Part shown: positions 108 through 39,476 of the stretch, piece by piece
Numbering within the stretch: position 1 is the first letter of the stretch
Layout: each line of letters opens with the position of its first letter
From: Escherichia phage CLB_P1
Direction: 5' to 3' (one strand)
DNA: 40,218 nucleotides
Sequence record: KC109329.1
Translations under genes and position numbers: made by a program
Notes under the pieces: generated by a model
What the model saw: the letters and a program-made list of their open reading frames with translations, nothing else
Databases searched by the model: none
Told to the model about the DNA's origin: nothing

Positions 108-424
108 ATAGACATACAGCTAATAGACACAAAGCCATAGACTTAAGGTCTAAGACATGTTAGTCAAAGACTATATCCTCTTAGTCACTATGGGGCCGAC
201 GATAGCTTAATCAATATTATTTCAAATTACCTATTGACTATATGTCCAGACTATGGCCTAATAGCTTCCGTCAACACGACACGGCAGTAAACGCTAGGTA
301 ACTAGCAACGACTCACCGAGATGGTGACTCACAGTAGGTCAGGACGATAGGTTGAATGGTCTAGCCAGTACGGAAGATTGCAGAAGGAACTAAGCGTACC
401 GACCTCAGAGCTGAAAGAAAGTAG

Positions 425-453
425 TTGACAAGTAGTAAGACTTAACGTAGTAT
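425..453 (+). promoter_or_regulatory. Strong sigma70-type host promoter (T7 A1-like): TTGACA, 17-nt spacer, TAGTAT
   Basis: -35 TTGACA at 425-430, 17-nt spacer, -10 TAGTAT at 448-453; sits upstream of the first early genes as the A promoters do in T7. Confidence 0.6.
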
Positions 454-1856: not shown

Positions 1857-2054
1857 ATGATAGCTGCACTATTGATAGCCATAGGCTATGGGCTTATCGC
1901 CTACGTGCTGGTGAGAGACATTAACAAGGCGCGTAAAGTCTACAAATTAAACTATGTACGTCTGGGTCGCTGGACTGTACGTCAACCTAACGGGCGATTC
2001 ATGCGCAACTTAGCGAACGTCTGGGATATAGCAACACTTGGGAGCAAACTGTAA
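1857..2054 (+). CDS. Hypothetical early protein (65 aa) with N-terminal hydrophobic helix
   Basis: ORF tightly packed after the previous gene; no recognised motif. Confidence 0.5.
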   Translation: MIAALLIAIGYGLIAYVLVRDINKARKVYKLNYVRLGRWTVRQPNGRFMRNLANVWDIATLGSKL

Positions 2055-2380
2055 TGAACAAGTCATACGGGATTAATCTGGTACACTCTATGGACGCAGA
2101 CATGCAAATGTTAAGCCTACTGGCTACCGGGTATCGTCACGGAACGTCAAGTCACTCCGCACGTCAACAGCAGGAGCGGGACCGTGTACTACAGGCACGA
2201 CTCCGGGCTGAGGGCCATAAGTCCGAACTGATGTGTCTGGCGTATGGTGGACGACCAATCACTGATGATGGTAAACTTCTGGTCTCAGGCTGGAAGGCGA
2301 TAGACCAACGGTCAACAATCCAGCACACGACTCATGGTGACTTCAGTCATCTTCACGCTAACCCACTGATATTAAAGTGA
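2054..2380 (+). CDS. Hypothetical early protein (108 aa)
   Basis: ORF start overlaps the previous stop (TAATG); no recognised motif. Confidence 0.5.
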   Translation: MNKSYGINLVHSMDADMQMLSLLATGYRHGTSSHSARQQQERDRVLQARLRAEGHKSELMCLAYGGRPITDDGKLLVSGWKAIDQRSTIQHTTHGDFSHLHANPLILK

Positions 2381-2385
2381 TTCTG

Positions 2386-2408
2386 ACTTAACTATCACTA
2401 TAGGACTC
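2386..2408 (+). promoter_or_regulatory. Phage RNAP promoter copy immediately upstream of the RNA polymerase gene (ACTTAACTATCACTATA/GGACTC)
   Basis: Matches the genome-wide 17-bp promoter core at -17..-1; the initiating region GGACTC differs from the GGGAGA of the strongest copy. Confidence 0.55.
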
Positions 2409-2477
2409 AAGGTCTAAGACTCCAAGTGAAAGACCAAAGAGACTTTAAGTGAAAGACTAATAACAAGGACTTTAAGT

Positions 2478-5461: not shown

Positions 5462-5484
5462 CCTAAACTATCACTATAGGATTA
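5462..5484 (+). promoter_or_regulatory. Phage RNAP promoter (CCTAAACTATCACTATA/GGATTA)
   Basis: Consensus 17-mer read directly; position corresponds to T7 phi1.1. Confidence 0.65.
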
Positions 5485-5526
5485 GACTCAAGGTCATGAC
5501 TCAAAGTCGTGGCCTTCATGATTAAC
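5483..5526 (+). promoter_or_regulatory. Conserved stem-loop, candidate RNase III processing site (R1.1-like)
   Basis: AAGGTCAT...GTGGCCTT stem that pairs only as RNA (two G-U wobbles); same element recurs at 12568 and 36254 with different loops. Confidence 0.4.
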
Positions 5527-6005: not shown

Positions 6006-7057
6006 TGACAACTATTAAAACCAACCCACACCGCGCTGTAGATTACTCTGAGTCTGGCGTTAAGAAGGCACTGGAAGCAGCCGGGTCTCTGGAAGCTGAA
6101 GTGAAGTACGATGGTGTCCGGTTGAATCTTCCGGTATTCCCTACTGGTGAGACTCAATGGTTGAGCCGTGAGTCTAAACATCTCCCAGCACTTGAGTGGC
6201 TGTCAGTCCTTACCAACATCGACAACATCGTTGAGGACCAGCAAAAAGCCAGCGACTGGCGATGGTTCCTGAAGCAGGCTGGCTACGAAGGCACTGGCCT
6301 GATGATTGACGGTGAGGTCATGGTAAAGGGAGTGGACTTCAATACGTCTTCAGGTCTCATCCGAACGAAGTGGGTAAATCAAAAGAACTTTGAGTTTTCC
6401 ACTGGTGAGCACTGGGGTAAGAGCTGGAAGAAAGAGAATCTACCGTTCTGTCTTGACAAGAAGTACATCAAGGTAGTCGTCTACGGTATCGTGGACCTTA
6501 ACGTCATCCTCGACCCCAAGGCCGAAGGTCCTATCCATAGCGTCACCCGCCTGAAGGCCGAAGCTATCGTCCCTCTCCTCCAGAAATACTTCCCGGAAAT
6601 CGAATGGGTTCTTTCGGAGTCACACACGGTCTTTGACCTTGAGTCGCTCCAATCCCTGTACGAAGAGAAGCGAGCAGAAGGTCACGAAGGACTGGTGGTG
6701 AAAGACCCACTGGGCAAGTGGAAGCGTGGCAAGAAGTCAGGCATGTGGAAAATGAAGCCGAGCGAAGAGGCAGACGGCCATGTTGTTCGTCCGGTATGGG
6801 GAACGGAAGGTCTAGCCAACGAAGGTCTGGTAATTGGCTTTGACGTTATGCTTGAGAACGGGATGGAGGTCTCCGCAACTAACATTAGTCGCGCCCTTAT
6901 GTCCGAGTTCACCGAGAACGTCAAGTCGGACCCAGATTACTACAAAGGGTGGGCCTGTCAGATTACCTACATGGAGGAGACACCAGATGGAAGTTTGCGA
7001 CATCCGTCATTCGACCAATGGCGAGGTACTGAGGACAATCCTACAGTCAAGATTTAA
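6005..7057 (+). CDS. ATP-dependent DNA ligase (T7 gene 1.3 homolog)
   Basis: IKTNP, adenylation motif KYDGVR, EGHEGLVVKDP, KRGKKSGMWKMKP, GWACQITYMEETPDGSLRHPSF; start taken at the ATG overlapping the upstream stop (TAATG), not the track's 5990. Confidence 0.93.
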   Translation: MTTIKTNPHRAVDYSESGVKKALEAAGSLEAEVKYDGVRLNLPVFPTGETQWLSRESKHLPALEWLSVLTNIDNIVEDQQKASDWRWFLKQAGYEGTGLMIDGEVMVKGVDFNTSSGLIRTKWVNQKNFEFSTGEHWGKSWKKENLPFCLDKKYIKVVVYGIVDLNVILDPKAEGPIHSVTRLKAEAIVPLLQKYFPEIEWVLSESHTVFDLESLQSLYEEKRAEGHEGLVVKDPLGKWKRGKKSGMWKMKPSEEADGHVVRPVWGTEGLANEGLVIGFDVMLENGMEVSATNISRALMSEFTENVKSDPDYYKGWACQITYMEETPDGSLRHPSFDQWRGTEDNPTVKI

Positions 7058-7091
7058 GGTTGACCGGACGGCTCCTTCTGGAGTCGCCAAC

Positions 7092-7448
7092 ATGAAGGGT
7101 AAGCACTTAGGCTATCGACGCAAGGACGGCTACTGGGTTATAAGCACAACAAAGGGTCAACTCCTTGCTCACAGGGTAGTCTGGGAACTAACTCATGGTC
7201 CGATACCTGAAGGAATGGTGATTGACCATATAAACCGCGACCCTTCTGATAACCGCATTGAGAACTTACGATGTGTAACCCAGGCAGTGAACCTAACAAA
7301 CGTTCCCGTCCGTAGCCACTGCAAGTCTGGTGAGAAGTATGTGAACTTTGAGCCAAGGACTGGTAGATGGCAACTTCGGATAAAGCGTAAGTCATATGGT
7401 ACGTTCGACACCATAGCTGAGGCGGTAGCCTTGAGAGATTCATTATGA
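7092..7448 (+). CDS. HNH homing endonuclease (free-standing)
   Basis: HGPIPEGMVIDHINRDPSDNRIENLRCVTQAVN motif; lies immediately after the ligase gene. Confidence 0.8.
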   Translation: MKGKHLGYRRKDGYWVISTTKGQLLAHRVVWELTHGPIPEGMVIDHINRDPSDNRIENLRCVTQAVNLTNVPVRSHCKSGEKYVNFEPRTGRWQLRIKRKSYGTFDTIAEAVALRDSL

Positions 7449-7452
7449 CGTC

Positions 7453-7487
7453 AACCCAGTGGTCTTAGGACTGCTGGGTTTCTTTGC
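7453..7487 (+). terminator. Putative intrinsic terminator ending the early region (TE-like)
   Basis: 7-bp perfect stem AACCCAG/CTGGGTT (7453-7459 / 7474-7480) followed by TTCTTTG; same relative position as T7 TE after gene 1.3. Confidence 0.5.
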
Positions 7488-7507
7488 GTCTAGGCCACCA
7501 GCTAGAC

Positions 7508-7554: not shown

Positions 7555-7815
7555 ATGTCTAAGAACTTAATGTTTAATCGCTTTACGTCTACCTTCCACC
7601 TGTCCAACAATCCGTTCGCCTGCATCAAGCGCAACGAGAAGGTAGGGTTCTTCGGCAAGGTCGTGAAGCTGTCACCTACAGTCTACGCGCTGTTGACTCC
7701 GGGCAAGATTGAAGAGGCACGCCAGAAGAAAGACTCAGCTGTGCCTGTGGTCTACACTAAGTGGCCTCGCCTGCGTCTGGTCGTAGAGTTCGCGAAGGAG
7801 GCCTACAATGACTGA
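7555..7815 (+). CDS. Hypothetical protein (86 aa), gp1.6 position
   Basis: RBS AAGGAG before ATG; no recognised motif. Confidence 0.55.
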   Translation: MSKNLMFNRFTSTFHLSNNPFACIKRNEKVGFFGKVVKLSPTVYALLTPGKIEEARQKKDSAVPVVYTKWPRLRLVVEFAKEAYND

Positions 7816-8227: not shown

Positions 8228-8305
8228 CTGGTGCTTTAGACAGTGGGCCTCAACCGGGAATGTGGACTACCTGTCCATGTACCATATGTGGAAGGAGAAA
8301 GGACT

Positions 8306-8464
8306 ATGAGCATTGAAGAAAAGAAATACATCGTGGAGCTTGAGGGTCGCATTCAGTCCTTCGAGGTTCCGGTGTACGCAAAGTCTCTTGAAGAGGCTAC
8401 CCTGAAGTCCCAAGAGTATGAGGATGCAGGGTTTGTGGTAGGACGGATTCGTCCTGAGACCTAA
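8306..8464 (+). CDS. gp2-like host RNA polymerase inhibitor (52 aa)
   Basis: SFEVPVYA...EA....AGF.VGRIRP matches the T7 gp2 core; RBS GGAGAAAGG. Confidence 0.7.
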
Positions 8465-9676: not shown

Positions 9677-9900
9677 TGACTCAGGAAGTTAAGGTCGTTC
9701 GTCAGCGTCTGACCATTGATAAAATCCCGGTAGGCTATGCGTTTATCGTCCACGGTAAGCCGGGTGAAGTGTACGTGAAGATTAGTAACTCTCACGTCTT
9801 CAACCATAAGTTACTCCAGATGCACACCACGGATGCTAACCGCTTCCAACGTCATCTGAACCTCGTAGCTGTAGAGCTGGTGGTGTATGATGGTGAGTAA
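9673..9900 (+). CDS. Hypothetical protein (75 aa) between endonuclease I and lysozyme
   Basis: Strong RBS AAAGGAG before ATG at 9673; no T7 counterpart recalled. Confidence 0.6.
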   Translation: MMTQEVKVVRQRLTIDKIPVGYAFIVHGKPGEVYVKISNSHVFNHKLLQMHTTDANRFQRHLNLVAVELVVYDGE

Positions 9901-10348
9901 GGTGCAATTCAACCCACGGTCCCGGACTGACGCTATCTTCGTTCACTGTAGTGCAACCAAACCGTCTCAGGACATCGGGGTAGACACTATCCGCATGTGG
10001 CACAAGCAGCAGGGATGGCTGGACGTAGGCTACCACTTCGTCATCAAGCGAGATGGTACTGTGGAAGAGGGTCGCCCGGTAGATGTAGTGGGGTCCCACG
10101 TTAAGGATTGGAACTCCCGGTCCGTAGGCGTCTGCCTTGTTGGTGGAATCGACGCTAAGGGCAAGTTTGAAGCCAACTTCACGCCTGCTCAGATGAACGC
10201 TCTACGAAACAAGCTGGCTGAACTGAAGGCCCTGTACCCTCAGGCAGACATCAAGGCTCACCACGATGTAGCACCAAAGGCTTGCCCAAGTTTTGACTTA
10301 CAACTCTGGCTGTCTACCAATGAACTGGTAACTTCCGACCACGGTTAA
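9887..10348 (+). CDS. N-acetylmuramoyl-L-alanine amidase / T7 lysozyme (gene 3.5 homolog)
   Basis: VQF..R..TDAIFVHCSATKPSQ, QGWLDVGYHF.IKRDGTVE, HHDVAPKACPSFDL, NELVTSD as in T7 lysozyme. Confidence 0.95.
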   Translation: MMVSKVQFNPRSRTDAIFVHCSATKPSQDIGVDTIRMWHKQQGWLDVGYHFVIKRDGTVEEGRPVDVVGSHVKDWNSRSVGVCLVGGIDAKGKFEANFTPAQMNALRNKLAELKALYPQADIKAHHDVAPKACPSFDLQLWLSTNELVTSDHG

Positions 10349-10372: not shown

Positions 10373-10588
10373 ATGATTAAACTTATTGAATTTCTTGGTC
10401 GTCTGGTGGTGCGTGGTTATCGTCGTGCTGCGGTACTGGAGCGAAAGGTAGAAAAGAAGACTGCTGACGGTGCGGCTGATGCTGCTGCTCTGGCTGACAA
10501 GCTGACCATCGCGTCACTGGAAGCGGGCATGAAGGCACGTCAAGCTGACACCAAAGCTGACCAGTTGGCCCAGTTCTTCAAAGCCTAA
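10373..10588 (+). CDS. Hypothetical protein (71 aa)
   Basis: RBS AAGGAG before ATG; Ala/Lys-rich predicted helical product. Confidence 0.55.
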   Translation: MIKLIEFLGRLVVRGYRRAAVLERKVEKKTADGAADAAALADKLTIASLEAGMKARQADTKADQLAQFFKA

Positions 10589-10606
10589 ACTATCACCTTA
10601 GGGATG
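10584..10606 (+). promoter_or_regulatory. Degenerate phage promoter-like site (CCTAAACTATCACCTTA/GGGATG)
   Basis: Upstream half matches consensus exactly; -4/-3 are CT instead of TA. Confidence 0.35.
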
Positions 10607-10653: not shown

Positions 10654-12357
<1,704 letters not shown>

Positions 12358-12567: not shown

Positions 12568-12614
12568 TCTAGACTCAAGGTCATTCACATTGAGTGGCCT
12601 TTATGATTAGACTA
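12568..12614 (+). promoter_or_regulatory. Conserved stem-loop, candidate RNase III processing site (R4.7-like)
   Basis: AGACTCAAGGTCAT-loop-GTGGCCTTTATGATTA; same stem as at 5483 and 36254 with a different loop. Confidence 0.4.
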
Positions 12615-17493: not shown

Positions 17494-17516
17494 ACTAAAC
17501 TATCACTATAGGGACT
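17494..17516 (+). promoter_or_regulatory. Phage RNAP promoter (ACTAAACTATCACTATA/GGGACT)
   Basis: Consensus core read directly; precedes the gene 6.5-6.7-7 cluster. Confidence 0.65.
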
Positions 17517-21323: not shown

Positions 21324-21346
21324 ACTAAACTATCACTATAGGGAGA
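21324..21346 (+). promoter_or_regulatory. Phage RNAP promoter, best consensus copy (ACTAAACTATCACTATA/GGGAGA), phi10 equivalent
   Basis: Full core plus GGGAGA initiating sequence, followed by an AU-rich leader and strong RBS before the capsid gene. Confidence 0.75.
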
Positions 21347-21448
21347 CCAAGAGACAGACTCAAGGTTTCCCTATTACTTCAGTCCATACGGATTGGGCGT
21401 ACAGTAAGTAATAAACTTTATCTTTCAATTGAATAGGAGAATTATCAT

Positions 21449-36253: not shown

Positions 36254-36298
36254 TTAGACTCAAGGTCATTACTGTATGTAGTGGCCTTTATGGTTAAC
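36254..36298 (+). promoter_or_regulatory. Conserved stem-loop, candidate RNase III processing site (R18.5-like)
   Basis: AGACTCAAGGTCAT-loop-GTGGCCTTTATGGTTA; third copy of the motif. Confidence 0.4.
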
Positions 36299-39453: not shown

Positions 39454-39476
39454 ACTTAACTATCACTATAGGGAAG
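39454..39476 (+). promoter_or_regulatory. Phage RNAP promoter near the right end (ACTTAACTATCACTATA/GGGAAG), phiOR equivalent
   Basis: Consensus core read directly; located between terminase and the right-end small gene as in T7. Confidence 0.65.

Follow-up and report, generated by a model that had tools for sequence, protein, structure and literature searches.

A probable class II-type promoter for the phage RNA polymerase directly upstream of gene 1 in the K1F-like Escherichia phage CLB_P1

The genome of bacteriophage T7 carries a phage promoter, phiOL, at nt 405, from which transcription can proceed rightward through gene 1, the gene for the phage RNA polymerase, located 2.8 kb further along. 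A sequence-only reading of the present DNA, according to which the phage promoters of T7 begin only downstream of gene 1, was thus mistaken on this point, since phiOL precedes the gene, although not directly. In the records of T7, K11, BA14 and Yepe2, phiOL is placed between the terminal repeat and the host promoters, with no promoter annotated directly before gene 1. Promoters situated directly upstream of the polymerase gene have been described in other phages. The promoter phi1 of Pseudomonas phage LUZ100 occupies such a position and a positive-feedback model has been proposed for it (PMC10134795), while the phage-specific promoter phi-A8 of Vibrio phage phiA318, directly upstream of the polymerase gene and a kinase gene, was read as a device of positive feedback or autoregulation (PMC4099482). 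The same circuit has been engineered as the T7 autogene (PMC1500874, PMC6395690), a polymerase gene behind its own promoter that needs a first dose of polymerase.

The closest described counterparts are found in the records of K1F-like phages. EcoDS1 (EU734172), with its gene 1 at 2336, has an annotated 'promoter phi' shortly upstream of this gene, at 2244-2266, and no annotated phiOL; a promoter before gene 1 is also annotated in the PE3-1, CR44b and CR8 records, and K1F has the identical promoter sequence at the same place. In a 2026 genome note on another Kayfunavirus, the repeat is listed without comment where the gene upstream of the polymerase gene ends (PMC13298934). No transcript mapping for any Kayfunavirus was found in the literature. 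The gene 1 promoter is real but already known, being annotated in the records of its relatives, and the novelty implied by the sequence-only reading does not hold; the sole part that may be new is that the promoter core overlaps a candidate hairpin of the processing type.

The window analysed here, i.e. the whole stretch of 40,218 bp, represents a complete genome of a K1F-like podovirus of the T7 group. Its left 5.2 kb are 100% identical to Kayfunavirus CLBP1 (OZ035730, a record without annotation) and, gene 1 included, show ~93% nucleotide identity to coliphage K1F and many relatives. Short direct-repeat arrays (ACCATAGGTC, ACCTACAGTC, CATAGAC), typical of the terminal regions of the T7 group, are present at the left end (20-135). 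The window seems to hold a single copy of the terminal repeat, since no exact repeat is common to its two ends. The sequence CACTATGGG at 186, considered as a promoter, was rejected as belonging to the concatemer-junction region. Gene 0.38, which precedes the site under study, is annotated in the K1F, EcoDS1 and CR8 records, and no gene 0.7 kinase was seen among the ORFs of the short early region. An ORF for an HNH endonuclease (6834-7448; Pfam HNH_3, 2.4e-22) is located between the ligase gene and the terminator TE; it looks like an inserted homing endonuclease, since in EcoDS1 the TE directly follows the ligase gene with no HNH ORF between them. The coordinates of the features relevant to the analysis are collected in Table 1.

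Table 1. Positions in the 40,218-bp window of the genes and of the predicted control elements around gene 1
Feature	Coordinates	Strand	Basis and remarks
Host RNA polymerase early promoter, A-type	234..270	+	93% identical to EcoDS1 host RNAP promoter at 469-505
Second host early promoter	425..453	+	TTGACA, 17-nt spacer, TAGTAT; sigma-70 consensus 10/12; homologous to EcoDS1 609-647
Early gene, gp0.38 homologue	2054..2380	+	PHROG 7066, 2e-44; stop codon 5 nt before promoter
Predicted phage RNA polymerase promoter, -17..+6, class II type	2386..2408	+	ACTTAACTATCACTATAGGACTC; +1 = G2403 (T7 numbering)
Candidate RNA hairpin, 58 nt, irregular	2395..2452	+	In read-through (host-initiated) RNA only; -16.4 kcal/mol, z -2.08
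Leader, 75 nt, of the predicted phage-initiated gene 1 mRNA	2403..2477	+	Begins GGACUCAAGG; Shine-Dalgarno AAGGA 2464-2468
Gene 1, single-subunit RNA polymerase, 893 aa	2478..5159	+	Pfam RNA_pol 1.1e-106, RPOL_N; PHROG 414, E-value 0
phi1.1-equivalent promoter, next after the gene 1 promoter	5462..5484	+	Canonical R1.1-type hairpin follows at 5485-5523, starting GACTCAAGG
TE-type terminator, end of the host-polymerase early unit including gene 1	7453..7486	+	12-bp stem, then UUUCUUUG
gp2, inhibitor of host RNA polymerase	8243..8464	+	PHROG 1307 'RNA polymerase inhibitor', 2e-23
gp3.5 amidase/lysozyme	9887..10348	+	Pfam Amidase_2, 1.9e-17; position corresponds to gp3.5 of EcoDS1

The sequence-only reading had placed a near-consensus promoter about 70 nt upstream of the start codon of the polymerase gene, and such a site was confirmed at 2386-2408, with a leader of exactly 75 nt between G2403 and the ATG of gene 1 at 2478. 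Nine further sites in the genome match (A/C)CT(A/T)A(A/G)CTATCACT(A/G)TAGG(G/A), with +1 at 5479, 7525, 8477, 17511, 20332, 21341, 26023, 33306 and 39471. On a weight matrix derived from these nine, the 2386 site scores 32.5 bits, inside the range of their own leave-one-out scores (29.2-37.4 bits), and the next best sites of the genome score 24.1 (a weak promoter before gene 4) and 14.5 bits. Positions -17..+2 are identical to those of the phiOR-type copy at 39454-39472. The promoter is on the + strand, co-oriented with the genes, and occupies the intergenic gap after gene 0.38, ending 69 nt before the ATG; no terminator-like site was found in the 75-nt leader that separates it from gene 1. 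A sigma-70 scan of 2380-2410 detected no host promoter, and no acceptable -35/-10 spacing was seen there by eye; in the T7 record, the corresponding position is occupied by a minor host promoter, C. The weak promoter before gene 4, CCTAAACTATCACCTTAGGGATG (10584-10606, +1 at 10601, 56 nt before the gene at 10657), carries CTT rather than TAT at -4..-2 and corresponds to the EcoDS1 'phi' at 11107-11129. With this weak eleventh site included, the window's ten sites and the 11 annotated phage promoters of EcoDS1 correspond one-to-one.

The strength of the promoter had been called uncertain on the ground that its start, GGACTC, departs from GGGAGA. This worry proved unfounded. All four promoters of the class II region start with GGA (2403 GGACTC, 5479 GGATTA, 7525 GGACAA and 8477 GGACAG), as do two late promoters, and GGG starts are found at 17511, 26023 and 39471 and, as GGGAGA, at 21341 upstream of the capsid gene. 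Since the class II-region promoters all start in this way, the 2403 start is not anomalous and the site, which also has the left to early-middle position of its class, is by its sequence a typical class II-type promoter of this genome.

The distribution of the promoter was examined in loci retrieved from IMG/VR with the polymerase protein as query (80 loci, 58-99% identity). In each of the 20 K1F-like loci (88-99% identity), a phage promoter is present whose +1 falls between -75 and -81 relative to the ATG, and CR8, of the genus Caroctavirus, with a polymerase of 79% identity, has one at -93 from the true ATG. A further 16 contigs came from metagenomes scanned with the gene 1 start; with these included, the promoter is present in all the loci sharing the gene 1 start (40/40), and the leader is almost invariant over them. 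The 111 bases comprising promoter, leader and gene 1 start are 100% identical in EcoDS1, where the same genes (0.38 and 1) flank them. In GenBank, 220 phage records contain the promoter/leader region. Some of these are assigned to unlikely hosts (e.g. PV615262 'Acinetobacter phage vB_Aba_01KA' and two 'Enterococcus' records) with a region 96-99% identical, which suggests mislabelled hosts or mixed lysates.

The correspondence between the promoter and the specificity of the enzyme is of particular relevance here. Grafting of a K1F-type specificity loop into the T7 polymerase results in orthogonal transcription from a K1F-consensus promoter (PMC3458549). Three specificity loops and three promoter types were found in three lineages, each with its own type before gene 1. 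In the window, the loop RLNLMFLGSFNLQ occurs with promoters of the type AACTATCACTATAGG and a copy before gene 1 at -75; in the loci L019 and L039, the loop RLDLMFLGTFRLQ (T3-like D, T7-like R) occurs with AACCCTCACTATAGG in all promoters and a copy at -75/-76; in CR8, the loop RIKLMFMG-VQYR occurs with GAAGGTACACTATAGG in all promoters and a copy at -93. The specificity bases at -12..-8 have therefore shifted together with the specificity loop in two diverged lineages, the N-to-D/N-to-R variant of L019/L039 and CR8. Because the copy tracks the specificity of the enzyme through three states, the gene 1 promoter appears to be used by the phage polymerase. That it might instead be an inactive relic or a chance copy of a promoter, devoid of any role, is hardly credible: no specific point speaks in its favour, the exact 23-mer was obtained in 0 of 100 shuffles, and both the presence of the site in every one of the 40 loci and its co-variation with polymerase specificity in three lineages argue against it. 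There is strong evidence of function, and the site is best regarded as a true promoter for the RNA polymerase that the phage itself encodes, predicted to be of the K1F specificity class.

A departure within this pattern is seen in the subgroup L013-L015, L021 and L022, in which the gene 1 promoter has an A at -2 (CACTAAAGG) and differs from the subgroup's other promoters lying up to 3 kb downstream of gene 1; owing to this departure, the copy may possess a lower strength there. The same sequence at about -81 from the gene 1 ATG was also observed in L091, L093 and L094, the polymerase of the subgroup being 93-94% identical.

Beyond the Kayfunavirus and CR8 loci, no core match fitting a promoter consensus was found within ~600 nt upstream of gene 1 in the T7-, T3- and K11-like IMG/VR loci, where the upstream copies are only of the phiOL type, ~2.2-2.9 kb from gene 1. 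Closer matches to the core pattern, at -299 in L046 and at -211 in L008, were discarded as they fit no promoter consensus. An unbiased shared-word test gave long repeats in the Kayfunavirus and CR8 loci only, and no promoter upstream of the polymerase gene was found in SP6 within 3 mismatches. Five loci (L025, L026, L029, L038 and L040) have no recognisable promoter core and lie outside this comparison. The T3-like contig L041 has two T3-type promoters unusually near gene 1, at -617 and -1569; the probable reason is that the contig is circularly permuted and its early region shortened (phiOR, then phiOL).

The Kayfunavirus left end (1-2385 of the window, and the corresponding part of EcoDS1, locus L003) is without a phiOL, and in the records examined this absence coincides with the presence of a promoter adjacent to gene 1. 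A scan of 1-2385 with the weight matrix detected no phage promoter, the best score of -7.1 bits ruling out a hidden phiOL, and the 2386 site is, like phiOL in its own genomes, the leftmost phage promoter. The site could be a displaced equivalent of phiOL, whose main job is the priming of a replication origin or concatemer processing and packaging, with transcription of gene 1 only incidental. The lack of phiOL in the window and in EcoDS1 agrees with such a displacement, phiOL and the gene 1-adjacent promoter look mutually exclusive between T7, K11, BA14 and Yepe2 on the one hand and the K1F-like phages on the other, and phiOL of T7 is linked to a secondary origin. However, the site is 2.2 kb inside the genome, downstream of both host promoters (234-270, 425-453) and of five early ORFs, and it keeps near gene 1 (~-75 to -93) in Kayfunavirus and Caroctavirus despite the differing content of their early regions. 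Moreover, the leader has 37% G+C, inside the 36-49% range of the other promoter leaders, and shows no special A+T tract, by which an origin-like A+T-rich tract after the promoter was rejected. A displaced phiOL is improbable on this evidence. The sequence-only reading had left a choice between an autoregulatory loop and a role in replication or packaging; its first part stands in so far as conservation and co-variation with the specificity loop support a working promoter that would be able to feed back, while nothing specific favours the second, the leader being no more A+T-rich than others and the promoter being near gene 1 and not near a genome end.

The organisation of the transcription unit is compatible with such a feedback. 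No terminator-like site was found between the host promoters and gene 1, and the TE (fold of 7445-7492: -24.2 kcal/mol, z -5.6; aligning with the EcoDS1 TE at 7668-7697) is placed only after gene 1.3 and the HNH gene. Since the host promoters lie upstream and the terminator only past gene 1, the host polymerase can make the first gene 1 mRNA, as in T7. The arrangement has, at the sequence level, the components of an autogene: a polymerase ORF preceded by its cognate promoter without an intervening terminator, a leader devoid of significant structure, and host-type promoters further upstream from which the bootstrap could proceed. It is quite probable that 2386-2408 is a functional class II (middle) promoter serving positive feedback on gene 1 after bootstrapping by the host polymerase, with initiation at 2403, the feedback and its brake all predicted. 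In the proposed mechanism, the host RNA polymerase would start at ~234-270 and 425-453 and transcribe genes 0.3 to 0.38, gene 1 and the region up to the TE (~7453-7486), and this host-made transcript would give rise to the first molecules of the phage polymerase. The new polymerase would then bind 2386-2408 and start at G2403, producing gene 1 mRNA with a 75-nt, mostly unstructured leader. The resulting positive feedback loop would keep up the supply of gene 1 mRNA and of the downstream class II genes after gp2 shuts off the host polymerase, from which time, judging from the biology of T7, the phage promoter would be the sole source of gene 1 mRNA. T7 lysozyme preferentially silences class II promoters, and by analogy the loop would probably be limited by the gp3.5 lysozyme damping the promoters of this class. 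Any benefit of the loop is not general, because T7, K11, BA14 and Yepe2 manage without a gene 1-adjacent promoter; the movement of T7 gene 1 behind T7 promoters, the subject of Endy et al. 2000, reportedly did not raise fitness.

The recurrent motif noticed in the leader is indeed overrepresented. GACTCAAGG, found at 2404, has 46 occurrences with at most one mismatch against 12.3 +/- 3.9 expected, and five exact copies on the + strand (2404, 5485, 12572, 21357 and 36257). Three of these copies (5485, 12572 and 36257) begin GACTCAAGGTCAT...GTGGCCTT(T/C)ATG(A/G)TTA, with hairpin folds of z -2.3 to -3.3 (-3.28 for the hairpin at 5485-5523 after the phi1.1 equivalent). The stretches 5485-5523, 12572-12612 and 36257-36297 have the form of canonical T7 R1.1-type hairpins (GACTCAAGGTCAT...GTGGCCTTTATGATTA), and their two-arm sequence presumably matches the R1.1 RNase III substrate of T7; they are likely, from this resemblance, to be RNase III processing sites. 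When the whole window was compared with Rfam at gathering thresholds, no match was obtained; R1.1-type hairpins have no Rfam family. In the leader of the capsid gene, the copy at 21357 falls within the 5' stem-loop. The opening of the gene 1 leader, GACUCAAGGUC, is the 5' arm of the canonical copies at 5485, 12572 and 36257, an arm common to T7 R1.1 as well. The copy at 2404, however, shares only this 11-nt 5' arm: the canonical two-arm sequence GACUCAAGGUCAU...GUGGCCUUUAUGAUU is not present in the gene 1 leader, whose 3' arm, AGACCAAAGAGACUU, is unlike the canonical GUGGCCUUUAUGAUU and whose stem is weaker. A structured leader in the phage-initiated RNA was rejected, the folds having z-scores of +0.62 and -0.13 relative to shuffled sequences.

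A hairpin can be drawn only when transcription enters from upstream. The candidate at 2395-2452 has the promoter core UCACUAUAGG (-8..+2) as its 5' lower arm and CUUUAAGUGA as its 3' arm, and requires the promoter bases -8..-1, which are missing from phage-initiated RNA. The equivalent hairpins of the L013-type and L019-type variants have z-scores of -2.66 and -2.02. RNAalifold retained both stems, the lower and the upper, over 15 variants; one compensatory pair was seen, besides several G.U to G-C changes arising from a few events. In the L013 subgroup, the T-to-A change at -2 of the promoter has its counterpart in an altered 3' arm, resulting in an 11-bp perfect stem; the leader of this subgroup is remodelled, its 3' arm CTTTAGTGATA being perfectly paired with TATCACTAAAG. 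The leader of the window holds two copies of AAGTGAAAGAC (2427-2439 and 2449-2461), either AGUGA of which could pair with the UCACU of the promoter, and L019 and L039 have the second copy only. Since the corresponding stretch upstream of gene 1 in T7 also contains an RNase III-type hairpin sequence, the hairpin is possibly a counterpart of the T7 R1 site, at which cleavage might occur; with one compensatory event and a few G.U to G-C changes behind it, this assignment is put forward as a hypothesis.

The hairpin raises the alternative that RNA structure is the main reason for the conservation of the sequence, the core being the lower stem of an RNase III-type hairpin, the R1 counterpart, in host-made mRNA, with phage initiation marginal. 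It would account for the z-score of -2.08 when -8..-1 are transcribed against -0.13 for the phage-initiated leader, for the matched change in the L013 subgroup and for the similarly placed T7 sequence. Yet the hairpin uses only -8..+2 while -17..-9 are equally conserved, in L019, L039 and CR8 these upstream bases have changed to the promoter specificity of the respective lineage, and the leader hairpin of CR8 is wholly downstream of the promoter; in addition, the z-scores are modest and the compensatory event is single. Conservation chiefly for RNA structure is therefore very improbable, and a promoter function remains the preferred explanation. A combination of the two is conceivable, in which the promoter core would serve at the same time as the 5' lower arm of an R1-like hairpin and gene 1 mRNA would exist in two purposely different forms, the host-initiated one carrying the full hairpin and being processed by RNase III, and the phage-initiated one, which starts within the hairpin at G2403, having an open and unprocessed leader. 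The matched -2 T-to-A and 3'-arm changes in one subgroup fit such a dual use, which is offered as a tentative and rather unlikely proposal. If true, the two gene 1 messages would be processed or translated differently, and constraints of RNA structure would act on the promoter sequence.

The gene 1 promoter opens no new kind of mechanism. Its significance lies in that the textbook rule for T7, according to which gene 1 is a purely host-transcribed early gene, is not valid across the subfamily, the whole K1F clade and Caroctavirus having a polymerase gene with its own promoter and no phiOL. The K1F clade is thus a natural test bed for positive feedback of the polymerase in a lytic programme. 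In addition, K1F-type polymerases serve as orthogonal parts, so that the native promoter and leader are relevant to engineers, and the promoter annotation is worth carrying into unannotated records such as that of CLBP1.

A comparison with the known systems helps to place the site among them. With the 'phi' of EcoDS1 it forms a homologous element without any substantive difference, the annotations in the EcoDS1, PE3-1, CR44b and CR8 records being sequence-based. It resembles the class II promoters of T7 (phi1.1A/B, phi1.3, phi1.5, phi1.6 and others) in being a 23-bp element with a CACTATAGG core in the left part of the genome and in having initially transcribed bases unlike the GGGAGA of class III, such promoters often being followed by an RNase III hairpin; it differs in the -12..-8 bases, which are K1F-specific (AACTAT, not CGACT), and in its place before gene 1, whereas every class II promoter of T7 comes after it. 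With phiOL of T7, K11, BA14 and Yepe2 it shares the leftmost position, the rightward direction and a location upstream of gene 1 from which that gene could in principle be transcribed, but phiOL lies 2.4-2.9 kb before gene 1 and the present site 75 nt before it, in a genome without phiOL. LUZ100 and phiA318 have a comparable arrangement but are distant phages with promoter sequences unrelated to the 2386 site; for the LUZ100 promoter, moreover, gating by a MarR-type repressor in a temperate context has been proposed, whereas the early region of the present genome shows no evident repressor or integrase. The T7 autogene has the same circuit, but it is synthetic, whereas the bootstrap here would be provided by read-through from host promoters within the same transcription unit, and the loop, unlike that of the autogene, would run for only a few minutes of the lytic cycle.
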